Origin: a virus
DNA length: 64,000 bases
UHGV virus genome: UHGV-1430915
Direction: 5' to 3' (one strand)
The notes beneath the pieces were generated by a model. The model was not told the DNA's origin, did no database searches, and saw nothing but the letters and a program-made list of their open reading frames with translations. How positions within the stretch are numbered: the stretch's first letter is position 1; the number at the start of each line of letters is the position of its first letter. This document shows, in pieces, positions 4,717 through 27,044 of this stretch. The translations under genes were made by a program, and so were the position numbers.

Positions 4717-5075
4717 TTAACCTCCAGAACCTTACCTGCCAGCTTAATCATCTCCAGCAGATGCCCTGCAAACACAACATCAGGGTTAAGCTTATCCACA
4801 CCATCCACGGTAATATCTTCGAACAAGATTTTAAATAACTCTTCAATAGAGTTATCATCAAGTTCTTGAAACAGGTAAGCCAGGGCTGTAGGAAGGACCT
4901 CTGCCATATTCTGACCACCTGAGAGAATAGATCCGCCGACAGCTCCTAGCGGGACAGCTACAATCTTACCGATTTTAGGCATGTTTTTCATTGCTTTCAT
5001 CGGTCCCCAGTGGGTGATCACAAAGTTGTGCCCTGCTAAATCAATCTCTGTTGTAGGTCTAAAGTTTATAGCCAT
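4602..5075 (-). CDS. tail assembly chaperone
   Basis: 157-aa acidic ORF between tube and tape measure genes; contains C-F-F codons TGT TTT TTC forming slippery site. Confidence 0.5.
   Translation of the reverse strand: MAINFRPTTEIDLAGHNFVITHWGPMKAMKNMPKIGKIVAVPLGAVGGSILSGGQNMAEVLPTALAYLFQELDDNSIEELFKILFEDITVDGVDKLNPDVVFAGHLLEMIKLAGKVLEVNYGCFFTQDGLGSLLEMLQQMGMIQQVNNLDQAPEEQE
4701..4707 (-). promoter_or_regulatory. candidate -1 programmed ribosomal frameshift slippery site T-TTT-TTC
   Basis: Minus-strand heptamer TTTTTTC in zero frame TGT-TTT-TTC of chaperone; -1 shift enters the ORF ending at 4342. Confidence 0.45.
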
Positions 5076-5194
5076 TTTATAGCATCCTTATTAGTCATGT
5101 TGTGCACCATATTTGTGTATTTTACCATGATTATGGTGCATTGTCAATTTAACCTTTCAAGCAATCCAAAAGAGTTTGTCAAAACCATAAAAGC

Positions 5195-5221
5195 AAAAAG
5201 CCCCACCCGAAGGTGAGGCTT
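5195..5221 (-). terminator. candidate intrinsic terminator/attenuator (minus strand) after tube gene
   Basis: GC stem-loop (gcctcacc-ttcg-ggtggggc) followed by UUUUU on minus strand. Confidence 0.4.
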
Positions 5222-5237
5222 ATACTAAAGTGTGCCC

Positions 5238-5711
5238 TTAGATAATACCTGCAAGACCTGCGAGGCCAGTGAGAGCACCAGTGATGTTGTCACGGTTGAG
5301 CCATGCATCCAGAATACCGATATCCCAGTCCAGCTGACCTACTTCGGTTCCGTAAGTGAGGTCAGGCTGTTTTTGGATCCAACCGATTGTAGCAATACCA
5401 GGACCCTGGCTACCTTCCAGCAGAACCGGGAAGAATACCAGACCAGTAATAGATGCCTGTTTCTGCCAGTCAGAAAGGTAAGCGTTCCATACAGAAGTGT
5501 TCTGCAAAGACACAGTCATAACACCAGATTGGTTACGAGACAGGGCTGCAGACATTTCGCCATCCACACCAACGTGAGGGTAGATGTTGTCTTCGTTTCT
5601 TGAAACAACGATCTTGGTGTCAGCAGCGAAGCCAGTGACACGCTGCTGCATCAGGTACAGTTTGACCTTTTTAGGGTCATAAGCATAAGGAGTTAAAATT
5701 TGAGTTTCCAT
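5238..5711 (-). CDS. tail tube protein
   Basis: 157-aa ORF immediately downstream of sheath gene, upstream of chaperone; canonical myovirus order. Confidence 0.55.
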   Translation of the reverse strand: METQILTPYAYDPKKVKLYLMQQRVTGFAADTKIVVSRNEDNIYPHVGVDGEMSAALSRNQSGVMTVSLQNTSVWNAYLSDWQKQASITGLVFFPVLLEGSQGPGIATIGWIQKQPDLTYGTEVGQLDWDIGILDAWLNRDNITGALTGLAGLAGII

Positions 5712-5721
5712 CTAGTCTTCC

Positions 5722-7098
5722 TTATTCAGTCATTGCAACAGCATTGGTGGATTTAGAACCAACTTTGTCCAGAAGGACGTTGATCCGGATACGAACGAAG
5801 TGCAGGGCGTTGTTATACACCAGTTCTACTTTCACACCTTCCAGAACACGAGCAGCCAACTGATTGGTTGGGATCTCTGCACGTTTAGGAACTGTGATGA
5901 TCGGGTCGTAGAACACATTGTTGTCTTCGTCAAAACCTGTCAGGATCGCGCCATTCTTAATGCCAGTATTGATCGGGTTGTTCATCAGAACAGATTTGAT
6001 AACCGGAAGATCATCATCAGACATCTTCATGCTTAAACCCATGTTGGAGCGGCGATGCATGTACCCAAACATGGATTCTTCAGATCTGAACTTGATCCAG
6101 TGTGCAAAACGAATAGCGTCTGCATACTGACCTGAAGCACACTTACCTTCCCAGAAAGCGCCAACACCGTTAATCATTCTGTAGAAGTTAACGTGGTTTT
6201 CCCAAATCGCCATACGCTGAGTTAAAGTCAGAGATGGTGCAATCACACCCGGCATCTGTTTTAAGTGCAAGCTGTCACCGTAGGACGGATCGTTGGATGC
6301 CATAGCACCTATGATACCACCCTCCGGGAAGTCCTTATCTGCACGAGGATCGTACATGCCAACACTGTCATATTGTGCAGCTTTCAGTTTGGTAGCGATG
6401 TTACTATCTTTGCCAGTCACATCTTCTGCAGTAGAGTAGACATGGAGCTTGTAGTTAGCCTGAGCCCACTTAGCACATGCTTCAATGTCGGTGTGGTCTT
6501 CATGGCACAGGAAGTACCAATTGTCACGCTCAGCATTGATCTTATCAACTACTGTAGAAGGTTTTTCAGTATTGGCGATATTTTTGATTGTATAGTTACC
6601 AGTATGATAACCAACAGTACAGTCACCAGTGATGGTGATAACACCTTCAGAAGCCTCCACAGTGATATCTTCCAAGTTATCATCTGCTTCGATTTTAGTC
6701 TTCATTGATTCTGCAATCTGAGTTGCAGCTGTTCCACCAGAGATAGGAACTATCAAAGAGGTATTGTAGCCACCTTTTGCAATAGTCATTACGACATCGG
6801 TATCGGCTGCGGCAGCAATACCCTTAAAGTCTACAGTGGTTTTTTCTTTGGCCTGTCTGCCGATCATAACATATTGTGGAGGGAATACACCACCAAAAGC
6901 TTTTGCTGCAAACTCATACGCTGCAGAGCCTTGTGCGAAACCATCTTCCACCATCTGATCCAGCTCCGCATATACGCGAGCTCGCTCAGTAAAGTTGTTG
7001 TGGATAGCGATGAACAGGGGAGTTTCGAAACCTACAGTGTCAATAGGTTGGGTTCCGAGGTTAACTGTAACATCTACCACTTTATCTAAATATGGCAT
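5722..7098 (-). CDS. tail sheath protein
   Basis: 458-aa ORF preceding tube gene in sheath-tube-chaperone-tape measure order. Confidence 0.6.
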   Translation of the reverse strand: MPYLDKVVDVTVNLGTQPIDTVGFETPLFIAIHNNFTERARVYAELDQMVEDGFAQGSAAYEFAAKAFGGVFPPQYVMIGRQAKEKTTVDFKGIAAAADTDVVMTIAKGGYNTSLIVPISGGTAATQIAESMKTKIEADDNLEDITVEASEGVITITGDCTVGYHTGNYTIKNIANTEKPSTVVDKINAERDNWYFLCHEDHTDIEACAKWAQANYKLHVYSTAEDVTGKDSNIATKLKAAQYDSVGMYDPRADKDFPEGGIIGAMASNDPSYGDSLHLKQMPGVIAPSLTLTQRMAIWENHVNFYRMINGVGAFWEGKCASGQYADAIRFAHWIKFRSEESMFGYMHRRSNMGLSMKMSDDDLPVIKSVLMNNPINTGIKNGAILTGFDEDNNVFYDPIITVPKRAEIPTNQLAARVLEGVKVELVYNNALHFVRIRINVLLDKVGSKSTNAVAMTE

Positions 7099-7170
7099 TT
7101 GTTTCCTCTTAATATCTGTGCACGGATATCAAACACGCAGTGTAATCATTACACTACACAATTATAACGA

Positions 7171-7722
7171 TTACTGACCACTGTCTGTAACCGCTTTACC
7201 AGAATTGGGTGAAGGGAAATGTGTGGTTATTTCAGCCTTAATTCCCTGAAGATCCTCAAAAGCCCCAATGTCTGTCTCAACAAACCTTACGTTAAATGTC
7301 AGCATTACGGTAGCTCTATTTTCATACGTCTGCTTATTCAACGGCACCCTTTGAGGTGAAATTGTTGAATTGTTAGAGTAGGCAAAGCACGATCCCAGAG
7401 GGAAATACTTGTCATAAAACATTGGAAGGTTTATTGCTTGCAATACTCTGCTAAGTGCAGCATATGCCCTGCCGCGATAAGCTGTTAACAGATAAGTAAC
7501 AGTATAACTGTGGGTGACGTAAGCATTACCCTCCGCATCTTGAAACTCATTATCTTCCCAAGTGGTGGGATTGATCGCCAGGGTTTGCAAAAGTACAAAC
7601 TCACCTTCCGGCTTCGGTATGGTAGAGCTTTCTGCCAGAACTACAGTTCTTCCTGTGGCAACCTTGACAAGCTTAGCGATGGTTGTTTCAAGATCAGAAA
7701 AAACTTTTTCGAAAGCTTCCAT
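7171..7722 (-). CDS. hypothetical neck/tail completion protein
   Basis: Position between head and sheath genes; ATGA overlap with upstream gene. Confidence 0.4.
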   Translation of the reverse strand: MEAFEKVFSDLETTIAKLVKVATGRTVVLAESSTIPKPEGEFVLLQTLAINPTTWEDNEFQDAEGNAYVTHSYTVTYLLTAYRGRAYAALSRVLQAINLPMFYDKYFPLGSCFAYSNNSTISPQRVPLNKQTYENRATVMLTFNVRFVETDIGAFEDLQGIKAEITTHFPSPNSGKAVTDSGQ

Positions 7723-17531: not shown

Positions 17532-17608
17532 TGGTCTCCACGGAGTGATTCGAACACTCGACCTCCTGATCCCAAATCAGGCGCTCTACCAAGCTGAGCT
17601 ACGCGGAG
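17532..17608 (-). tRNA. tRNA-Pro (anticodon TGG)
   Basis: Cloverleaf by hand: acceptor stem paired, D-arm GCTC/GAGC, anticodon loop TTTGGGA, T-loop GTTCGAATC, encoded CCA. Confidence 0.8.
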
Positions 17609-17619
17609 TATTTATTATT

Positions 17620-17694
17620 TGGTGGCCCTGGGTGGAATTGAACCACCGTCTGGCGATTATGAGTCGCTTGCTTGAACCTTCCAGCTACAGGGCC
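17620..17694 (-). tRNA. tRNA-Met (anticodon CAT)
   Basis: Acceptor GGCCCTG/CAGGGCC, anticodon loop CTCATAA, T-loop GGTTCAATTCC, CCA encoded. Confidence 0.8.
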
Positions 17695-17695
17695 A

Positions 17696-17771
17696 TGGTG
17701 CTGATGGCAGGACTTGAACCTGCAACCTATTGATTACAAATCAATTGCACTGCCAATTGTGCTACATCAGC
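17696..17771 (-). tRNA. tRNA-Thr (anticodon TGT)
   Basis: Acceptor GCTGATG/CATCAGC, anticodon loop TTTGTAA, T-loop GGTTCAAGTCC, CCA encoded. Confidence 0.8.
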
Positions 17772-17775
17772 AAAA

Positions 17776-17878
17776 GGTGCTAGGTGATGGAATCGAACCA
17801 CCTATGTATTCAACGACTACCTCGTCTATTTTCAGGATTAAAAATCCTCGCCCTTGCCAAAGGGCTTACCTAGCGCAA
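17776..17878 (-). ncRNA. tRNA-like element (perfect acceptor and T-arm; Lys-TTT-like anticodon loop; about 30 extra nt before T-arm; no encoded CCA)
   Basis: Acceptor GCTAGGT pairs with ACCTAGC, T-loop GGTTCGATTCC present, but region between anticodon and T arms far exceeds any normal variable arm. Confidence 0.4.
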
Positions 17879-17880
17879 TA

Positions 17881-17972
17881 TGTTGACCATGTGGCTAGTC
17901 GGCGATGACGACTGTAACATTTGATAATCCGGTTCTGCTTCCGGCTTTCGCTTAATTACAAGGTCAACAATG
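17881..17972 (-). ncRNA. candidate small structured RNA within tRNA cluster
   Basis: 8-bp closing stem TGTTGACC/GGTCAACA enclosing two hairpins (AGTCG..CGACT and CCGG..CCGG); lacks T-loop signature. Confidence 0.3.
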
Positions 17973-18063
17973 TGGCGGAGAGTAATGGAATCGAACCATC
18001 ATCGAGTCATCCTCAACGGGACGGTTTTCAAGACCGCTTGAGCACCATTGCTCCCTACCCTCC
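17973..18063 (-). tRNA. tRNA-Ser (anticodon TGA)
   Basis: Anticodon loop CTTGAAA, long variable arm, T-loop GGTTCGATTCC, acceptor GGAGGGT/ACTCTCC, CCA encoded. Confidence 0.8.
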
Positions 18064-18177
18064 TTTATAAATTACACTGATAATGACACTGATTTTCGAG
18101 CAGTTAGTGACTAGTATAAACGACGATAAATATCAATGTCATTATCTGTATGATTTATGCATTTAAAAATATAAATT

Positions 18178-18264
18178 TGGTGGGGAGTGGTGGAGTCGAA
18201 CCACCCGAGTCGCAATGACAATAGATTTACAGTCTACACCGCTACCTCTACGGGATAACTCCCC
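18178..18264 (-). tRNA. tRNA-Tyr (anticodon GTA)
   Basis: Anticodon loop CTGTAAA, long variable arm, acceptor GGGGAGT/ACTCCCC, CCA encoded. Confidence 0.8.
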
Positions 18265-18268
18265 AATT

Positions 18269-18343
18269 TGGCACCCCGTACTGGACTCGAACCAGTGTCA
18301 ACGGCTTAGAAGGCCGCTGCTTTATCCACTAAGCTAACAGGGC
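18269..18343 (-). tRNA. tRNA-Arg (anticodon TCT)
   Basis: Anticodon loop CTTCTAA, D-arm GCTT/AAGC, acceptor with G-U pairs, CCA encoded. Confidence 0.75.
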
Positions 18344-21278: not shown

Positions 21279-21833
21279 TTACTCCCCGCTGTCAATAGCA
21301 AGACTCATTGCAATACGGTATGCCTCTTCTAATGGTAAGAGTCTCCCCCACACATCCCAACCGACATCAAACTGCCTGCCAAACAACTGCTGTGTGGTTC
21401 CGTGAGCATGACCGAACAGTTGGACTGATCCGTGAGGCTTTCTGTTCCACTTTGCAAACTGGTAATGGCTCATACAGATCAAATTCTTGTTGTGGCGAAG
21501 CTCGTAATAATCTACAACCTCATGACCGAACTCTTTCATAATTCTGACAGTCGTCCTTGTGTCATGGTTACCACGAACAAGAATAATATGTCCGTTCAAC
21601 ATATTTAGAACATCTGGAAGCAATTTGTTGATATTCTTATCATTAGTGCACGCAATATCCCCCAAGTGAAACACAGTGTCTGCAGGTGACACAACAGAGT
21701 TCCACTTGGTGATGATTCCCGCATTCATACTGTCAAGATTGTGATCATACTGAGATCTGTGTTTTTGACATGAGTCGAACTCCATTACCCGCTGGTGGAG
21801 AAAGTGTGTGTCGCTTGTTACAAAGTATTTCAT
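21279..21833 (-). CDS. calcineurin-like metallophosphoesterase (putative RNA 3-prime phosphatase / phosphoesterase)
   Basis: Motifs SDTHF, GDIA, GNHD, GHAH typical of binuclear metallophosphatases; start set at MKYFVTSDTHF. Confidence 0.65.
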   Translation of the reverse strand: MKYFVTSDTHFLHQRVMEFDSCQKHRSQYDHNLDSMNAGIITKWNSVVSPADTVFHLGDIACTNDKNINKLLPDVLNMLNGHIILVRGNHDTRTTVRIMKEFGHEVVDYYELRHNKNLICMSHYQFAKWNRKPHGSVQLFGHAHGTTQQLFGRQFDVGWDVWGRLLPLEEAYRIAMSLAIDSGE

Positions 21834-21840
21834 ACATTCC

Positions 21841-22251
21841 TCATTTAAGTTTAATGCAGTTTTTAAGCTGGCGTTCCATACGATCCACAACCCTGTCTGG
21901 AACATCATGAATGCTTTTATTACCATGGCGGTTTTCAACCACGATCACGGTATAACTATATCCATGACTGATCGCCATGTCAATATATTCTTGCACATAT
22001 TTTTCTTTTGTAAACGTATTACTTACCACGATACGGTCGTAGCCCATACGCATCATATCTTCTACGTTATCTTTGCACCATTTTGCTGCAAGTGTTACTT
22101 TACTTGCATCCCAATTGTAATTGCCGTCATCGTCGTACCAGAACATATCGTTCTCAAAATGTGGATACAGACCTTCTAAAGATAGCGCATTTGCCAGTGT
22201 TGATTTGCCAGACCCTGGTAGACCACGCACGATATATAGCATTTTAGACAT
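21841..22251 (-). CDS. polynucleotide 5-prime kinase (Pnk-like P-loop kinase)
   Basis: Walker A GLPGSGKST; C-terminal region resembles T4 Pnkp kinase domain (HG..SIHDVP..V..RM); start at MSKML with RBS. Confidence 0.65.
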   Translation of the reverse strand: MSKMLYIVRGLPGSGKSTLANALSLEGLYPHFENDMFWYDDDGNYNWDASKVTLAAKWCKDNVEDMMRMGYDRIVVSNTFTKEKYVQEYIDMAISHGYSYTVIVVENRHGNKSIHDVPDRVVDRMERQLKNCIKLK

Positions 22252-22279
22252 AGTAACTCTCCGTTTTAATTTTAATGAT

Positions 22280-22308
22280 AGTATACCTAACTGTTTTGTT
22301 AATTTCAA
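22280..22308 (-). promoter_or_regulatory. sigma70-like promoter (minus strand) TTGAAA-N17-TATACT
   Basis: Upstream of kinase-phosphatase operon, back to back with plus-strand TTGACA at 22312-22317. Confidence 0.45.
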
Positions 22309-22351
22309 GTGTTGACACCAAGTTATTTGTGTGGCAGGATAAAGGGACAAA

Positions 22352-23287
22352 ATGACAAATGAGGAATGTATAATGAAGTATTTTAATGCAGACGACCTAG
22401 TTGACAAAGGTCTTGTAACCAGCAGATATTACCCGGATCTTGGGTTAAAGATCTATAAATATGCCAGAAAAGTATTCTACAACAATTTATGGCATTTGTC
22501 TCCTCGTTTGCTGGAGTGCCGAGGCATTGTTGTCGGTAATGAAGGAAATGTTGTGGCATGGCCCTTCACAAAAGTGTTTAACTTGGGAGAAAATTCCACC
22601 AACCTGCCTGACAATAAACTTGTGACGGCGGTAGAGAAAAAGAACGGATTCCTTGGTGTGGTATCATCTCATAAAGGTGAACTATTGTTCTCAACAACCG
22701 GGTCTCTTGATTCTCCATATTGTAACCTTGCAAAGGAAACAATCCAGGAGCAATGTGGTAATTTAGATCTTATCAAGAGGGTTATGGGCCATGAAAACAT
22801 GACATTCATGTTTGAAATTTGTCACCCTTCAGATCCGCATATTGTTCAGGAAGATCATGGCGCATATTTGATAGGTTGCAGATATAATGATTCTGGAATA
22901 ATGCTACCAGAAGCAGCTTTAGATGGGATTGCCAAATACCTTGGTGCAAAACGTCCTCACACTGTGCGTGAAATTCCGTTCAGCTATGCAAAAGAATTAG
23001 CTGCAGAAACAAGAGGTGAAGGGTATATGATTCGTAAGCCTTACTACCCTTATGATCTGCAGCTGAAGATCAAGTCTCCATACTATTTGGCACGGAAGGC
23101 CGTAATGAGGGGTAAAGCTTGGAAGATTTGGGATGATGATATCTTTAAACGTGTTGACGAAGAGTTTTATGGCATGGTAAACTTCATTCGTAGCAATTAC
23201 ACAGAAGATGTGTGGAACTGCCTCCTGGAGCAAGAACGTCGTGAGATACTTGACTGCTATTTCCACAACGAGGACTATATGCAATGA
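22352..23287 (+). CDS. RNA ligase, Rnl1 (T4 RnlA) family
   Basis: Blocks LECRGI, KVFNLGEN, KKNGFLG, STTGSL align with T4 Rnl1 LECRGI, KFFNLNEN, KEDGSL, KSKGSI; motif I has Asn in place of Asp. Confidence 0.65.
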   Translation: MTNEECIMKYFNADDLVDKGLVTSRYYPDLGLKIYKYARKVFYNNLWHLSPRLLECRGIVVGNEGNVVAWPFTKVFNLGENSTNLPDNKLVTAVEKKNGFLGVVSSHKGELLFSTTGSLDSPYCNLAKETIQEQCGNLDLIKRVMGHENMTFMFEICHPSDPHIVQEDHGAYLIGCRYNDSGIMLPEAALDGIAKYLGAKRPHTVREIPFSYAKELAAETRGEGYMIRKPYYPYDLQLKIKSPYYLARKAVMRGKAWKIWDDDIFKRVDEEFYGMVNFIRSNYTEDVWNCLLEQERREILDCYFHNEDYMQ

Positions 23288-23634
23288 AGAAGTTGATTGT
23301 GTGGCTGGATGACTTGAGAGATCCGTCAAATTATGGGCTCCCAGATGCTCTTTGGCTAAAGAATTCCTCTGAGTTTATGGATTTTATTAACGATAAGGGA
23401 AAGCTCTACAGGCGCGTTTCTGAGTGGCACATGGACAACGATCTTGGAGAGGTATTTGAAGGGTACGATTGCCTATCTATGTTGGAGGAAAAATTTGTAT
23501 TTGGTAAGCCTCCTGTAGTTGACAACGTGAAGATTTTCGTGCATACTTCTAACCCATCAGCGGCTCGTAAATTCATGATTGCTGCTGACTCGTTTAAAAA
23601 GTTTGGAATAGAGATTAAACAAAACATCTACTGA
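23284..23634 (+). CDS. hypothetical protein, translationally coupled to RNA ligase (possible receiver-like fold)
   Basis: ATGA overlap with RNA ligase stop; N-terminal LIVWLDD acidic pair; no confident family assignment. Confidence 0.5.
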   Translation: MKKLIVWLDDLRDPSNYGLPDALWLKNSSEFMDFINDKGKLYRRVSEWHMDNDLGEVFEGYDCLSMLEEKFVFGKPPVVDNVKIFVHTSNPSAARKFMIAADSFKKFGIEIKQNIY

Positions 23635-23642
23635 GGACACTT

Positions 23643-24404
23643 ATGCGACGACTGATCATTATCTCCGGTGCTGGTTTGAGCGCTGAATCTGGTATCCCCA
23701 CTTTCCGATCTGGTGGCACTGCAATGTGGGAGAATTTCAGCATCGATGAGGTGTGTAACATCCACACCTTTGCCAAGAACTACTATAAGGTGCATGACTT
23801 TTACAATGCACGGCGTGTAGCTCTGGGCAGTGTTGATCCTAACCTTGCACATCTCCGGATCGCTGAGTGGTATTCACGCTGGTCTGGTCGTGTGATCAAC
23901 CTGACAACCAATGTAGATGATTTGCTGGAGCGTGCTGGTGTAAAACATGAAGATATTTTACATGTCCACGGATATTTGCCAGAAATAGTCTACGAGGATG
24001 ATGAAGGGAGTAACGTCATTAAAGACATTGGATACTCTGAGGTAGACGCAAGCAAGTATACTTGGGTTAAGCCTAATGTAGTGTTTTTCGGAGAAGTAGC
24101 TCCAAAGTATACAGACATGTATGACCTGTTGACTTCTCTGACGAGCAATGATATGGTTATCCTTGTAGGGTGCTCCAACACAGTTATCAATTTTAACTGG
24201 GAGCTATTCCCTGCCTGTAATAAGGGAACCAAACTGCTGATCGTTAACAAATACGACTCACAGCATTTAGGGGAGAATGGCATTTCACGTAGTGACATTT
24301 ACCAGTATGAGGATCGCGGCATCCCAGTTTGGTTTAACGGGGCGGTTGACGCTTTCTCTGATAAAACATTTATTGACATCGTAGAAAACTTTATGGAACT
24401 GTAA
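23643..24404 (+). CDS. Sir2-family NAD-dependent protein (sirtuin-like)
   Basis: Canonical sirtuin motifs GAGLSAESGIPTFRS, TTNVDDLLE, catalytic-His block LHVHG, VKPNVVFFGE, ILVGCSNTV; no zinc-ribbon Cys pairs. Confidence 0.8.
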   Translation: MRRLIIISGAGLSAESGIPTFRSGGTAMWENFSIDEVCNIHTFAKNYYKVHDFYNARRVALGSVDPNLAHLRIAEWYSRWSGRVINLTTNVDDLLERAGVKHEDILHVHGYLPEIVYEDDEGSNVIKDIGYSEVDASKYTWVKPNVVFFGEVAPKYTDMYDLLTSLTSNDMVILVGCSNTVINFNWELFPACNKGTKLLIVNKYDSQHLGENGISRSDIYQYEDRGIPVWFNGAVDAFSDKTFIDIVENFMEL

Positions 24405-24418
24405 GCGGAGGCCTTTTA

Positions 24419-25132
24419 ATGCTGAATACTAAACTGATCGACAACCTGGAAAAACTGTCTCAGCCTGAAAACTACCTTTGGTCTGCCAACTGGGTGGAAA
24501 ATTGGAACCGTGTAGCAGCTAAAGTGAAAAAATCATACACACCATTCGAACTTCAGCTGAGTTTCATTGAGGAAGAGTTCAATGAAGTTTTGGAAGAGTT
24601 GGAGAAAGGTGATGGTGGGGATCATCTCCTAAAAGAGGCCTGCGATCTTCACGTTGTCACAAGTTATGCCGCTTATCTTGTTAACGATAACCATGAAAAG
24701 TGGTCAAACCTGTTTGATAATCCGCGAGGTCTTAAGTTTAAGATCGGTGAATTTTATGATACACTGATCGCTGCGAAAAATACCTCTAAGCAAAGAGCGT
24801 CCGCTTACCGCTTAGCAGAGCTGTCAACGGCTTTACTGTTCCAGCTTCGCGGTGATGTGTGCGGGATGATGCGGAAGGTTCTAAAATCTAATGACAGCAA
24901 GTTTGCACGTGTCAACCATCTGCGGCATTCACACGGTGCCAGTGCAGATATGCCTGCTGAACAACTCATCGAGTTGGAGATTAAAGATCTTGAGCGACGC
25001 TTTGATGGTCGCTATGAAGGTTTTGTTGCTAAAGAAGAATTCTACAACGGAAATAAAGTTATCATATTCCTCGACAGTAAAGGTAAGATTATGAAGCCTT
25101 CAAGCTTCAAGGATGTAACAGAATATATTTAA
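24419..25132 (+). CDS. possible MazG-like nucleotide pyrophosphohydrolase
   Basis: Acidic helix IEEEFNEVLEELEKGD and EACDLHVV reminiscent of MazG/HisE all-alpha NTP pyrophosphatases; weak. Confidence 0.4.
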   Translation: MLNTKLIDNLEKLSQPENYLWSANWVENWNRVAAKVKKSYTPFELQLSFIEEEFNEVLEELEKGDGGDHLLKEACDLHVVTSYAAYLVNDNHEKWSNLFDNPRGLKFKIGEFYDTLIAAKNTSKQRASAYRLAELSTALLFQLRGDVCGMMRKVLKSNDSKFARVNHLRHSHGASADMPAEQLIELEIKDLERRFDGRYEGFVAKEEFYNGNKVIIFLDSKGKIMKPSSFKDVTEYI

Positions 25133-25196
25133 TAACATAGCCGGGGCGATCCCGGCTTTACTTGTTTCGGAAAGTATGCAAGTGAGGTAGAAAGTT

Positions 25197-25505
25197 ATGT
25201 ACAAGCACTCCAGAGATCTTGAAAACGATGATGTGTTTGGGGATCAGATGAAAGAATTGGTTAAACTTATAGGTAGGATAGAGGATAAGTTTGACACTAA
25301 GATCTACATCGACAGCAAAGTATTCAACCACAAAATATGGACAAATCTGTGTGTTGGACTGCATGGAGATAAAGATGTGGTAAATTTAGTTGTAATTAAG
25401 TTCATAGTGTGGCAGAATAAAACTATAAATTATTACGATCCACACCTACTTGTTTACCCGATAAAAGACCTATTAGAGAAGGAGGACTGCAATGCCGTTA
25501 TTTAA
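25197..25505 (+). CDS. hypothetical protein
   Basis: 102-aa ORF. Confidence 0.4.
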   Translation: MYKHSRDLENDDVFGDQMKELVKLIGRIEDKFDTKIYIDSKVFNHKIWTNLCVGLHGDKDVVNLVVIKFIVWQNKTINYYDPHLLVYPIKDLLEKEDCNAVI

Positions 25506-25761
25506 TCTTGCTAGACCTGTAGAAGCACACCAGTTTGACGGAAGCTCTTCATCAGTATCTGATCTGCAACGGTGGATTGATACAGGTGTGTTTACACCGT
25601 CACCTGTTCGGACCAGAGATATTCTTCGCATGTGTGAGCTTGTCGAGCCGTTTGGTAACCTGGTCTTGTACCAAGGGGATTGGTTAGTTGACTTTATGGG
25701 AGACTGGTTGGTAATGAGCAAAGAAGAGATGTTTAAAATTTTTAAGGAAGAGGCTGAGTAA
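25492..25761 (+). CDS. hypothetical protein
   Basis: 89-aa ORF, overlaps neighbours by a few nt. Confidence 0.4.
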   Translation: MPLFNLARPVEAHQFDGSSSSVSDLQRWIDTGVFTPSPVRTRDILRMCELVEPFGNLVLYQGDWLVDFMGDWLVMSKEEMFKIFKEEAE

Positions 25762-27044
25762 TGCATCAGATCAAAACAACACTGTACGCACTGAACAAAG
25801 ATGGCAGCTACCAACAGTGGAAAGTATTCACGGATGGTGATAAGGTTATCGTAGAGTTTGGCAAGCTTGATGGTAAACTGCAATACAAAGAGACGATCTG
25901 CACACCTAAGAACGTGGGTCGTGCCAATGAAACTACAGCTGAGCAACAGGCTGAGCTGGAAGCGATCAGTAAGTGGGAAAAACAAGTCCGTCTGGGGTAT
26001 GTTGAAAATATGGAAGATTGCGAGCAGGGTGTTGACCTTTTACCCATGTTGGTGCATGACTACCTGAAGCGTGGAAAGGCACTTAAATTACCTTGCTGGA
26101 TTTTGCGTAAGTTAGATGGCCTTCGTCTACTGGTTGTTTTCCAAAACGGTGAGCCTAAATTTATTTCCCGTGGTAATAAGTCCTACCCTATTCAAGGAAA
26201 GCTTCTGGAGCAACTTCGTTCTTTCCACTTCACCACCGGGATTAAACAGCTCGACGGAGAGATCTATATTCATGGTCTGCCTCTGCAGAAAATAGTGTCT
26301 CTTGCTAAACGTTGGCGCACACAGGAAGAGATTCAGGCCGAGATCGATAAAGACTACGAGGCAGATAAAAAACGCCGTCATGCCGCAATTAAGGCAGGCT
26401 TATCAACATACAAAAACTTCAATAAGGTAGATATTCCTGTTGATGTTGAGCCTGTTCGTGATGATTTGCGTTACGGAGGGTACTGTAGCTATGACTTAGA
26501 GTATCATATTTTCGACATCCCTAGTGACAAGGTATGGTGGGATCCAGAAACAGAATCTGGACGATGCAAGGATCTTATGGATGCAGAAGATACCATTACC
26601 ACCCTGATGCTTGACCATATCAAGGTTGTTGACGCAGAGCTTGCGTACACAGTTGATCATTGCGAAGAATCTGTTGGTGTATTCATGTCCGAAGGATATG
26701 AAGGTACTATCATGCGTAACTTCTGCGGTAAATATGAATATGGTCAGCGAACATCTGAAGCATTGAAATGGAAAAAGTTCAACGATGCTGAGGTGAAAGT
26801 TATTGACGTTGAGAAAGATAAGAATGATGAAGGTGTTCTTATCTGCGTTGACAAGGAAGGTATCGTTGTTAAAATGAAGATGAAAGGCACGCACGAGGAG
26901 CGTAGCTATGACAGGATGCAGGAAATGATCGGCAAGTTTGTCACCTTCAAATATCAAGCAAGGACAGAAGACAACAACTACCAATTCCCTGTCGGCATCT
27001 GCGTCCGAAATGTTAACCCTGACACTTGGGAGGTTCTGGAATGA
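25761..27044 (+). CDS. ATP-dependent DNA ligase
   Basis: Nucleotidyltransferase motif I KLDGLR, motif III-like EGYEGTIMRN, motif V LKWKKF; 427 aa. Confidence 0.7.
   Translation: MHQIKTTLYALNKDGSYQQWKVFTDGDKVIVEFGKLDGKLQYKETICTPKNVGRANETTAEQQAELEAISKWEKQVRLGYVENMEDCEQGVDLLPMLVHDYLKRGKALKLPCWILRKLDGLRLLVVFQNGEPKFISRGNKSYPIQGKLLEQLRSFHFTTGIKQLDGEIYIHGLPLQKIVSLAKRWRTQEEIQAEIDKDYEADKKRRHAAIKAGLSTYKNFNKVDIPVDVEPVRDDLRYGGYCSYDLEYHIFDIPSDKVWWDPETESGRCKDLMDAEDTITTLMLDHIKVVDAELAYTVDHCEESVGVFMSEGYEGTIMRNFCGKYEYGQRTSEALKWKKFNDAEVKVIDVEKDKNDEGVLICVDKEGIVVKMKMKGTHEERSYDRMQEMIGKFVTFKYQARTEDNNYQFPVGICVRNVNPDTWEVLE

Follow-up and report, generated by a model that had tools for sequence, protein, structure and literature searches.

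[quoted passage not shown] These authors proposed that the sirtuin removes the 2′-phosphate of RNA in the manner of KptA/Tpt1. Skliros et al. (2016; PMC5107563) named T5 and other phages as carriers of Sir2/CobB genes and favoured deacetylation of acetyl-CoA synthetase as the role of the protein in Vibrio phages. According to their published description, the proteins of the Vibrio schizoT4-like phages KVP40, phiSt2 and phiGrn1 resemble the one discussed here in being CobB-like and free of zinc ligands, with the catalytic His and the acyl-lysine tunnel retained; they belong, however, to another phage lineage, and their genes lie in a context of NAD+ salvage genes.

The window analysed here, a stretch of 64,000 nucleotides (UHGV-1430915), belongs to a Vequintavirus, that is, an rV5-like E. 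coli phage, with 99.3% identity to phage NHEP1 and 95-99% to rV5-group genomes, and the phage origin that an earlier note on this DNA had given its Sir2 gene is correct. The block containing this gene is present in 119 of 121 related deposited phage genomes, where the gene is annotated "Sir2". The earlier note had also read the arrangement as pointing to a role not yet on record for such a neighbourhood. This does not hold: the type 2 sirtuin neighbourhood of Iyer et al. has the same components, differs in nothing substantive and comes with a proposed role (PMC9503650). Nor is a phage sirtuin without zinc ligands new, the cases of KVP40 and phiSt2 having been published in 2016 (PMC5107563). 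Gene and neighbourhood are already in the literature, and the earlier interpretation as a whole is partly supported.

Organization of the cluster

The Sir2 gene is the third of a four-gene unit, in the order RNA ligase, cREC, Sir2 and MazG/dimeric-dUTPase-like protein, on the plus strand. The ligase (22352-23287, 311 aa) is a short, divergent member of the Rnl1 family (Pfam RNA_lig_T4_1 E 1.1e-14; PHROG 562 E 1.6e-65) whose 39 bits fall far short of the 242 bits set for T4 RnlA equivalogs; its translation contains putative K-x-x-G, EG-x-x-x-R and K-x-K ligase motifs. Its stop codon and the start of the following gene overlap in an ATGA at 23284-23287. The product of this second gene (23284-23634, 116 aa) had been called a coupled unknown protein; the coupling stands, while the protein is recognizable as a cREC (cyclic-phosphate-processing receiver-like) domain protein (cREC_REC, PF20274, E 4.8e-14, 53 bits with a cut-off of 27) in which the acidic residues D9, D10 and D51-N-D53 are invariant in the alignment. 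The Sir2 gene (23643-24404, 253 aa) and the next ORF (24419-25132, 237 aa) follow after gaps of 8 and 14 nt, in each of which a Shine-Dalgarno-like GAGGA or GGAGG is found; the earlier coordinates of these three ORFs are all correct. The last of them, previously taken as possibly MazG-like, does belong to the all-alpha NTP-pyrophosphohydrolase superfamily (MazG, PRA-PH or dimeric-dUTPase-like), its structurally nearest relatives being dimeric dUTPases. A terminator-like hairpin on the plus strand (25139-25157), found by consensus match, ends the unit; it is GC-rich, with eight pairs, six of them G-C, followed by the T-rich tail TTACTTGTTT. Overlap, short gaps, Shine-Dalgarno-like sequences and hairpin bear out the operon-like position described for Sir2, with an RNA ligase upstream and a MazG-superfamily protein downstream, and from these features we infer that the four genes are co-transcribed.

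Two divergently transcribed genes on the minus strand adjoin this unit. The nearer (21841-22251, 136 aa from the MSKMLYIVRGLPGSGKS start) encodes a P-loop kinase with the Walker A sequence GLPGSGKS (Pfam AAA_33 E 9.7e-10; PHROG 2071 E 9e-59; PHROG 505, "polynucleotide kinase", E 9e-10) that adjoins the RNA ligase in 12 related loci and is a candidate RNA 5′-OH kinase. The other (21279-21833, 184 aa from the MKYFVTSDTHF start, the start codon being that annotated in FV3) encodes a calcineurin-like metallophosphoesterase (Metallophos_2 E 3.6e-6; Metallophos E 5e-6; PHROG 547, "phosphoesterase", E 5e-52) showing D-x-H, GD and GNHD motifs; it accompanies the ligase in 14 related loci and is a candidate end-healing enzyme for RNA 2′,3′-cyclic phosphates or 3′-phosphates. 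Ligase, cREC and kinase (E 1e-14, 5e-14 and 1e-9) all lie within 1.8 kb of Sir2, and every partner gene looks catalytically competent and of families that heal or seal RNA ends.

The sirtuin: family, fold and motifs

As had been proposed, the third ORF encodes a Sir2 protein, matching Pfam SIR2 (PF02146) at E 1.1e-26 (94.3 bits, cut-off 24) over profile positions 1-178 of 180. Against the PDB, phmmer gives SIRT5 (E 5e-21) and E. coli CobB (E 7e-21), with identities of 28-31% to the two and 31% to CobB. The AlphaFold model (pLDDT 89.5) combines a Rossmann fold with a small domain inserted into it and is CobB-like in shape; the nearest structures in Foldseek are peptide-bound CobB complexes (E 2e-18, TM 0.75-0.84). 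In its predicted fold the protein comes nearest to E. coli CobB and human SIRT5. Given the Pfam, phmmer and Foldseek scores, the family assignment is far above chance.

All four motifs quoted previously for this ORF are found in its translation: GAGLSAESGIPTFRS (residues 9-23), TTNVDDLLE (88-96), LHVHG (106-110) and VKPNVVFFGE (142-151). In the NAD+-binding motif GAGxSxxSGIPxFR (residues 9-22; 23667-23708, plus strand, as are all positions below), G9, A10, G11, S16, G17, F21 and R22 are invariant in 35 diverse homologues. Residues Y54-N-A-R57-R58 (23802-23816) correspond to the class III Y-x-x-R motif, aligning with SIRT5 Y102/R105 and with YNARR of CobB, where the pair binds acidic acyl groups on lysine; Y54, R57 and R58 are invariant. 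His109 (codon 23967-23969) aligns with the histidine of the CobB/SIRT5 HG motif and is likewise invariant, and in the FGE substrate/NAD loop F148-F149-G150-E151 (24084-24095) only G150 varies, being present in at least 90% of the 35 sequences. N90, D92, G9-A10-G11-x-S13 and F149-G150-E151 also align with CobB and SIRT5, and G9/A10/G11, R22, N90, D92, H109 and FFGE are conserved throughout 35-120 homologues, with the exception given for G150. The homology falls inside Sir2, then, and the catalytic His, Asn and Asp (H109, N90, D92) are kept; judged by its sequence, the product is a catalytically intact, NAD+-consuming sirtuin.

Could the gene nevertheless be what is left of a cobB taken from the host, now without its zinc site and decaying or no longer functional? 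A canonical sirtuin deprived of its four zinc ligands would be destabilised, and among solved structures CobB of the host itself comes nearest. Identity to E. coli CobB is, however, only 31%; the 844 homologues share about 50 invariant positions, every catalytic residue among them; the gene is under purifying selection (dN/dS 0.07-0.09 vs related phages); the model is confident, with an ordered hairpin where the ribbon would be; the block is retained in nearly all of the related genomes counted above; and a related Vibrio-phage gene is transcribed. The conservation data effectively refute a remnant, and we consider it extremely improbable.

The same comparisons bear on a more serious alternative, which we hold possible, if doubtful: an ordinary protein lysine deacylase, a desuccinylase or deacetylase like CobB or SIRT5, that would remodel host or phage protein acylation, perhaps on acetyl-CoA synthetase, translation factors or the repair enzymes themselves. 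Its place beside RNA-repair genes would then come from early expression or ancestry in common with them and would not imply a common chemistry. The best sequence matches and the peptide-bound complexes are all of class III, the segment TTNVDD...HVHG alone brings up Sir2Af1, CobB and SIRT5, conservation covers the catalytic His and both the N/D and Y-x-x-R pairs as well as the FGE loop, and a deacylase was argued by Skliros et al. for the zinc-less Vibrio-phage Sir2, which is transcribed during infection (PMC5107563). On the other side, the protein stays far under all cut-offs of the CobB equivalogs (NCBIfam NF040867, NF001753 and others: 120.9 vs 243, 102.3 vs 320 and 91.2 vs 318 bits), and the E. 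coli host has a CobB of its own.

Loss of the zinc ribbon and of the TQNxD glutamine

The Cys4 zinc ribbon (CxxC...CxxC) of canonical class I-IV and U sirtuins is absent from residues 110-141 (23970-24065), which contain no Cys, as the earlier note had observed. The three cysteines of the protein (C38, C177 and C192) all lie outside this segment, whereas CobB has four within it and the SIRT5 row of the same alignment shows CxxC twice. In place of the ribbon there is a shorter, acidic segment (net charge about -6), which in the model forms a beta-hairpin with strands 110-118 and 124-128 (pLDDT about 95). Among the 120 closest homologues 69 have no cysteine here, 49 have one and two have two, which makes zinc loss characteristic of the clade as a whole and no peculiarity of this copy.

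A second change accompanies the first. The Gln of the (T/S)QNxD motif is not kept, the aligned sequence being T88-T89-N90-V91-D92 (23904-23918), with Thr89 at its place. This position is T, A, S or C in the zinc-less clade, and Gln is retained in 81 of 95 zinc-bearing representatives; the two losses co-vary strongly (counts 81/11/14/43, Fisher p = 3e-15), and a rough tree puts the protein within a clade of 20 members, all of them both non-Q and zinc-less. Such a coupled, clade-specific change suggests a functional shift. The protein further differs from CobB and SIRT5 in having GCSNxVINF for GTSxxVxPA and an additional C-terminal segment of about 20 residues, while sharing with them the two-domain fold and the GAGxS, N/D, HG and FGE motifs. 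It belongs to an offshoot of the class III (CobB/SIRT5-like) sirtuins that is zinc-less, of TTN type and found mostly in phages. T5.102 of phage T5 is a relative at the level of an orthologue (about 60% identity, zinc-less, TTNVD).

The two losses throughout a coherent clade speak against an ordinary deacylase, and, as departures from canonical deacylases, for an NAD+ glycohydrolase or an ADP-ribosyltransferase of proteins or nucleic acids employed in host takeover or counter-defence. Such an enzyme might modify a host nuclease or defence protein, cap RNA or DNA phosphate ends with ADP-ribose, or consume NAD+-derived immune signals or their precursor, and both activities are possible for sirtuins (reviewed in PMC9503650). 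The defence Sir2 NADases (ThsA, DSR1/2, Sir2-HerA, SPARSA) share with our protein the superfamily and the missing zinc ribbon. They differ from it in that the latter is a single-domain protein, encoded by a lytic phage within a repair operon, whose nearest relatives are deacylases; no fusion to or pairing with a sensor (SLOG, HerA, APAZ/pAgo or a large C-terminal domain) is seen, its neighbours being RNA-repair genes. No PADLOC defence model, those for defence-type Sir2 (ThsA, DSR, Sir2-HerA, pAgo-associated) included, matches at E <= 0.01, and sequence and fold are nearest to the class III deacylases CobB, SIRT5 and Sir2Af1; the earlier framing in terms of anti-phage defence Sir2 proteins is not supported. 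Against this second alternative there are also the conserved catalytic His and Y-x-x-R pair, which a simple NADase could, we presume, do without, and the harm that NAD+ depletion would do to the phage's own replication. A Macro-domain gene, the mark of the SirTM type, is found neither among the scanned neighbours nor in the FV3 annotation within 12 kb on either side, and NADAR and ARH partners are absent from the window's cluster. We think an NADase or ADP-ribosyltransferase distinctly unlikely.

Related neighbourhoods and a proposed role in RNA repair

Linkage of Sir2 to enzymes of RNA ends recurs across different architectures and lineages. The rV5-like loci have divergent operons; in the Mydo-like and other loci all genes are on one strand, the kinase has moved and a DNA ligase is inserted. 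Ligase, kinase and phosphoesterase occur together in 11 loci, eight of which also have cREC. In T5-like phages T5.102 lies two small ORFs from T5.105, an "RNA-repair"-type HAD phosphatase (HAD_SAK_2, E 4e-20), a pairing seen in 28 loci; unlike in the window, no gene for an RNA ligase, kinase, cREC or MazG-like protein lies within 6 kb of T5.102, two DUF7415 proteins being encoded alongside, and for the T5-like Sir2 genes in general a search of the surrounding 6 kb likewise revealed no RNA ligase. More distant zinc-less relatives adjoin RlaP and NADAR, or Metallophos, HAD_SAK_2 and RlaP; others adjoin a NadR-like gene and HAD_SAK_2, or PTH2. Linkage to genes processing RNA ends or ADP-ribose in at least five arrangements favours a part in RNA repair and is hard to explain for a general deacylase. 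Two of these contexts also count towards an ADP-ribosyltransferase or NADase: NADAR is an ADP-ribose-processing domain, and in a marine relative Sir2 overlaps the NadR-like NAD+-synthesis gene, whose relatives form the NARP3 counter-defence pathway.

In a group of phages of about 150 kb the cassette of cREC, phosphoesterase, ligase, kinase, DNA ligase and MazG-like gene is intact and Sir2 lies 31-33 kb away, a point in favour of a deacylase. Sir2 thus need not adjoin the repair cassette, and it is the cassette, not Sir2, that the MazG-like gene accompanies. Several other Sir2 lineages have no recognisable neighbours, and the "conservation" of the neighbourhood is in large part common ancestry inside two phage lineages.

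Our leading reading, with a probability of roughly 0.35, is that the sirtuin provides the NAD+-dependent step of a tRNA/RNA break repair of the yeast or plant style, as Iyer et al. (2022) propose; a CobB-like protein deacylase is its close rival. The NAD+-dependent handling of RNA-repair intermediates that the earlier note had listed is accordingly a serious possibility, and the sequence does not separate it from the deacylase, ADP-ribosyltransferase and NAD+-manipulation options, as was said there. In this repair scheme ligase, cREC, the MazG/dUTPase-like protein, the divergent 5′-kinase and metallophosphoesterase, and Sir2 would form one module. The cyclic phosphate would be opened by cREC (or the metallophosphoesterase), the 5′-OH phosphorylated by the kinase and the break sealed by the ligase. 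The sirtuin would then move the leftover 2′-phosphate onto the ADP-ribose of NAD+, as Tpt1/KptA does, giving nicotinamide and ADP-ribose 1″-2″ cyclic phosphate, the latter to be broken down by cREC and the pyrophosphatase. Conjectural in this scheme are the RNA substrate, the chemistry of 2′-phosphate transfer and what cREC and the MazG-like protein do.

Sirtuins and Tpt1 share a two-step chemistry: C1″ of NAD+ is first attacked by an oxygen nucleophile, and the transferred group is attacked in turn by the ribose 2″-OH. Yeast Trl1 leaves a 2′-phosphate, which Tpt1 removes, and the ligase domain of Trl1 belongs to the same Pfam family as the ligase of the window. The setting of the sirtuin beside ligase, kinase and cyclic phosphodiesterase recalls that of yeast Trl1 and Tpt1; the folds are unrelated, Tpt1 being of the ART superfamily, and only a functional analogy is proposed, with NAD+ as acceptor of the RNA 2′-phosphate. 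With E. coli KptA as phmmer query, no KptA/Tpt1 homologue was found in any repair locus examined, which leaves the slot for 2′-phosphate removal free. Several points weigh against this scheme, among them the unlinked, ligase-free and neighbourless Sir2 loci and the common ancestry described above. The T4-type Rnl1 pathway requires no 2′-phosphate removal; the protein lacks nothing that a lysine deacylase would require, with the Y-x-x-R pair and the FGE loop both in place; and a pI of 4.9 and a net charge of -13 (clade median pI 5.1) make it strongly acidic, which is not as expected for an RNA-binding enzyme and resembles CobB-S (pI 5.4), in favour of a deacylase, and not E. coli KptA (pI 9.4, +6). 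In the literature searched, no phage sirtuin had been put to a biochemical or genetic test, which also counts against an RNA-repair role.

To the account of Iyer et al. (PMC9503650) our analysis adds the operon boundaries, the co-variation of the Gln-to-Thr change with zinc loss and the charge argument, together with the PTH2, RlaP plus NADAR and NadR-like contexts and the separation of Sir2 from the cassette in the group of about 150-kb phages. If the sirtuin does take part in RNA repair, the module would serve the phage tRNA array, and host tRNAs, after nucleases that leave 2′,3′-cyclic phosphate ends.

Organization of the repair cluster

The sirtuin gene (Sir2; 253 codons) lies on the plus strand at 23643-24404, exactly where the earlier note had placed it, within a run of four closely spaced genes that begins at 22352 and ends at 25132. 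The first of these specifies a short RNA ligase of the Rnl1 family (PF09511, E 1e-14), whose score is well short of the T4 RnlA equivalog cut-off. Its stop codon is overlapped by the start of the gene for a cREC domain protein (PF20274, E 5e-14), the domain reportedly having been defined by Burroughs and Aravind in 2016; the sirtuin gene follows 8 nt past the cREC gene and, after a further gap of 14 nt, a gene for a 237-aa MazG/dUTPase-like protein closes the block. A GC-rich hairpin with a T-rich tail, resembling a terminator, is found at 25139-25157 on the same strand. The minus strand encodes a P-loop kinase (21841-22251), matching AAA_33 and the PHROG family "polynucleotide kinase", and a calcineurin-like phosphoesterase (21279-21833). 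A full complement of enzymes for healing and sealing RNA ends is packed tightly around Sir2. Against two related phages the four plus-strand genes give dN/dS values of 0.04-0.09, indicating strong purifying selection.

The sign of the GC skew flips at about 22,000, where leftward genes give way to rightward ones; around the roughly 100-bp intergenic region at 22252-22351 this change coincides with the divergent gene orientation (interval 21900-22400). Facing the kinase are two minus-strand matches to sigma-70-like promoters (22308-22280 and 22302-22275); ahead of the ligase, on the plus strand, no canonical promoter was flagged. Beyond the terminator-like element are two small ORFs (25197-25505, PHROG 7684; 25492-25761, PHROG 14585) and an ATP-dependent DNA ligase gene (25761-27044), homologues of all three of which accompany the repair cassette in Mydo-like phages.

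Four kb upstream of the cluster, ARAGORN identified an array of seven tRNA genes on the minus strand (17532-18343): Pro-TGG, Met-CAT, Thr-TGT, Ser-TGA, Tyr-GTA, Arg-TCT and one oddity, a tRNA-like gene of 97-99 nt at 17776-17874 with a four-base "anticodon" (atcc) that scores 35.5 bits against the Rfam tRNA model. Rfam, at its gathering threshold, did not support the Ser-TGA call. The record for phage FV3 has five annotated tRNAs, compared with these seven.

The 2.8-kb block at 22352-25132 matches Escherichia phage NHEP1 at 99.3% identity and 121 deposited genomes of rV5/FV3-group phages (Vequintavirus) at 90% or more; 119 of these genomes contain at least 80% of its length. In these records the ligase is annotated as "RNA ligase 1 and tail attachment protein", the cREC protein as "hypothetical" or [quoted passage not shown], the sirtuin as "Sir2 (NAD-dependent deacetylase)" and the 237-aa protein as "nucleotide pyrophosphohydrolase". 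Eighteen records named "Campylobacter phage", 16 of which list Campylobacter jejuni as host, contain this E. coli Vequintavirus block with an identity above 90%; these look like mislabelled hosts or contaminated isolates. Homologues of Sir2 itself number 844, one of which, in Klebsiella phage vB_Kpn_3 (P0068), is misnamed "tail assembly protein".

A sirtuin without zinc ligands

The assignment of this protein to the Sir2 family in the earlier note was upheld by homology: the Pfam SIR2 match is nearly whole-profile (E 1.1e-26; 94 bits against a cut-off of 24), the catalytic His and Asn are kept, and every sirtuin motif quoted there is present. The PDB matches are SIRT5 and E. coli CobB (E about 1e-20). 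An AlphaFold model built with 35 homologues (pLDDT 89.5, pTM 0.87) retrieved CobB as the top Foldseek match (E 2e-18, TM 0.75-0.84), followed by Sir2Af1 and SIRT5. The NAD+-binding active site of a sirtuin is conserved and intact in the protein; the residues that do not vary, whether 35 or 120 homologues are aligned, are G9-A10-G11, S16, G17, F21, R22, Y54, R57 and R58 and, further on, N90, D92, H109, G110, F148, F149, E151, G176, S178 and N179.

The zinc-ribbon cysteines are absent, as had been claimed, there being no Cys between the catalytic His (H109) and the FGE loop. This acidic segment (net charge about -6) comprises about 33 residues, against 36 in CobB and considerably more in SIRT5, and an ordered beta-hairpin is modelled where the zinc ribbon would be. 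Among the 120 nearest homologues the segment contains no Cys in 69 cases, one in 49 and two in 2. The zinc-less state is therefore confirmed and holds clade-wide. Unlike CobB and SIRT5, which also possess the zinc ligands, the query has Thr89 in place of Gln in the TQNxD motif, GCSNxVINF in place of GTSxxVxPA, and a C-terminal extension; ahead of the catalytic HG it reads VKHED, a two-residue insertion relative to the three residues (such as NTN) of CobB.

A defence-type Sir2 was also considered, TTNVDDLLE having been suspected of resembling the "TTNYD" motif of defence SIR2_2 proteins. This reading was dropped, as no PADLOC defence-system model matched the query and a search with the 37-residue TTNVDD...HVHG segment brought up class III deacylases and nothing else.

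When 1.84 billion representative proteins were searched with a profile, 155 representatives came up at E <= 1e-30. Among the best 150 of these, 81 combine the motif Gln with at least three Cys and 43 lack Gln and have fewer than three Cys, the mixed classes containing only 11 and 14 members (Fisher p = 3e-15 for the association of the two losses). A rough neighbour-joining tree places the query within a clade of 20 members, all non-Gln and all zinc-less. Zinc loss and Gln loss thus define a coherent sub-family. It is phage-dominated, and it fits the "distinct clade" of Iyer et al.

Gene neighbourhoods of the relatives

The earlier note suggested a function not previously described for this neighbourhood; that does not hold, the neighbourhood having been treated by Iyer, Burroughs, Anantharaman and Aravind in 2022 (PMC9503650). 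As summarized in that paper, most viral sirtuins form a distinct clade tied to RNA repair, with neighbourhoods of three types: 2H, Nudix-cREC and PIN domains in jumbo phages; in the rV5/Mydo type, a T4-like ligase together with cREC, kinase and MazG, joined in some cases by a calcineurin-like phosphoesterase; and a HAD phosphatase in the SP15 (T5-like) type. The finding is real yet already known: the gene is annotated, and the neighbourhood hypothesis is in print as a prediction from comparative genomics. The literature searched yielded no biochemical or genetic test of a phage sirtuin.

We surveyed 63 distinct viral loci encoding Sir2 relatives. A phosphoesterase, a ligase and a kinase occur near Sir2 in 11, including rV5-like and roughly 146-kb Mydo-like phages, and 8 of these 11 also encode cREC. 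In the Mydo-like loci all genes are on one strand, the kinase separates cREC from Sir2, and the gene directly after Sir2 is that of an ATP-dependent DNA ligase, its start overlapping the Sir2 stop. Three loci have a conserved ORF of 161-162 aa instead of cREC between kinase and Sir2 (L042:5302-5790, L052:5079-5564, L055:5090-5575); Pfam gave no match to the copies in L042 and L052, the two that were scanned, and the ORF may stand in for cREC without being homologous to it. A KptA occupying the Sir2 slot of cREC cassettes by non-orthologous displacement was looked for, and none was found in any locus.

In 28 T5-like loci Sir2 is followed, a few hundred bases downstream, by a HAD_SAK_2 phosphatase ("HAD domain in Swiss Army Knife RNA repair proteins"; E 4e-20), together with two DUF7415 proteins. 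In phage T5 itself (L065, NC_005859) the real Sir2 is T5.102, and T5.105 (7142-7648) is the HAD_SAK_2 phosphatase (E 4e-20); RefSeq mislabels the latter "Sir2 (NAD-dependent deacetylase)".

Distant zinc-less members show further arrangements. One, on a T4-like contig (L070), adjoins RlaP and NADAR (NADAR gene 6732-7181); another adjoins Metallophos, HAD_SAK_2 and RlaP. NADAR (4994-5515) is also found beside a zinc-less Sir2, one that still has the Gln, on the 345-kb jumbo-phage contig of locus L014. The NADAR adjacency hints that some Sir2 members produce an ADP-ribose conjugate for processing by NADAR; that the query is itself an NADase or ADP-ribosyltransferase seems improbable. A marine-metagenome relative (L068:6001-7888, L069:531-2418) overlaps a gene for a 389-aa NadR-like NMN-adenylyltransferase/kinase (CTP_transf_like plus CoaE/AAA_18), with a HAD_SAK_2 gene 1.2 kb beyond; the NARP3 pathway for restoring NAD+, described recently, uses an enzyme of this NadR-like type. 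A distant TTN-type, zinc-less Sir2 gene (L075:6001-7100) shares 4 nt with the beginning of a PTH2 peptidyl-tRNA hydrolase gene, a further tRNA-related context and one that the summary of Iyer et al. 2022 (PMC9503650) does not mention; SNase and RNase_T-like genes lie nearby. One distant zinc-less representative apparently has a cellular context.

Pfam scans of the neighbours took in the about-150-kb phages and several other lineages. They revealed no known domains in L008, L045, L054, L056 and L063 and a DNA ligase as the only match in L062; the neighbours were likewise uninformative in four distant cREC loci (L090-L093). In the about-150-kb phages Sir2 (L010, L009, L039) is located 31-33 kb from the repair cassette (L087, L088, L089) on the same contig. 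The order cREC, phosphoesterase, RNA ligase, kinase, DNA ligase and MazG-like gene is intact in L087 and L088, and no ligase or kinase match was detectable in L089. With the cassette intact and Sir2 so distant, this is therefore co-occurrence without adjacency, and it shows that in these phages the MazG-like gene belongs to the cassette, not to Sir2. Overall, the sub-family is recurrently linked, in several independent arrangements, to genes for RNA-end and ADP-ribose processing.

Proposed role of the sirtuin

We infer that the module repairs tRNAs, both the phage's own and the host's, after cleavage by nucleases that generate 2',3'-cyclic phosphate and 5'-OH ends. In the leading mechanism, the KptA-like model of Iyer et al., the sirtuin would provide the NAD+-dependent 2'-phosphate-transfer step. 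The cyclic phosphate would be opened by cREC or the phosphoesterase, the 5' end phosphorylated by the kinase and the break sealed by the Rnl1-family ligase; the sirtuin would then move the residual 2'-phosphate onto NAD+-derived ADP-ribose, and the resulting ADP-ribose cyclic phosphate would be cleared by cREC and the pyrophosphatase. Sir2 and Tpt1 are alike in that an oxygen nucleophile attacks C1'' of NAD+, after which the ribose 2''-OH attacks the transferred group.

We give this model a probability of roughly one in three, because the query retains all of the residues needed for lysine deacylation, the T4-type pathway needs no 2'-phosphate removal, adjacency of Sir2 and cassette is not universal, and the query is acidic like CobB (pI 4.9 and 5.4), whereas KptA is basic (pI 9.4), whole-protein pI being a crude proxy for surface electrostatics. 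A protein deacylase of the CobB kind is nearly as likely. The Y-x-x-R pair of class III is retained in the query (Y54/R57, which align with SIRT5 Y102/R105), and the query's score lies far below every CobB equivalog threshold. A deacetylase role was favoured by Skliros et al. 2016 (PMC5107563), who listed T5 and other phages as Sir2/CobB carriers, described Sir2/CobB proteins without a zinc site in KVP40 and phiSt2, suggested salt bridges as its substitute, and reported transcription of the Vibrio-phage gene at 20 min post infection. That the gene is dead is excluded.

A stronger form of the KptA-like model is somewhat less likely. It holds that the zinc-less TTN-type sirtuin lacks protein-lysine activity and is instead an NAD+ phosphotransferase directed at nucleic acids, analogous to Tpt1/KptA by convergence, so that rV5-, Mydo- and T5-like phages would run eukaryote-style tRNA repair via a 2'-phosphate intermediate, with cREC and the MazG/dUTPase-like enzyme clearing the by-product. 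The idea is already in print as a prediction.

Gene order is the basis for one further idea, that Sir2 might act on adenylylated ligase lysines, stripping AMP. It is entertained because Sir2 adjoins nucleotidyl-transferase ligases in several lineages, abutting the RNA ligase cluster in the window and overlapping the ATP-dependent DNA ligase in Mydo-like loci, and because class III sirtuins prefer anionic lysine adducts. We know of no precedent for the removal of AMP from ligase lysines by a sirtuin.

As the gene is abundant (844 homologues, 121 near-identical phage genomes), under strong purifying selection and present in genetically tractable phages, its function should be cheap to settle. 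Were it a CobB-like deacylase, a virus would be rewriting the host acyl-proteome. KptA-like activity, if demonstrated, would be a new reaction class for sirtuins, and the nucleic-acid reading, if true, would give the first sirtuin shown to work on RNA. If the prediction is true, nucleic-acid repair has co-opted the sirtuin fold; common coliphages, the model phage T5 included, would spend NAD+ on mending tRNAs cut by host anticodon nucleases, and tRNA cleavage and NAD+ warfare, two themes of phage-host conflict, would become linked.
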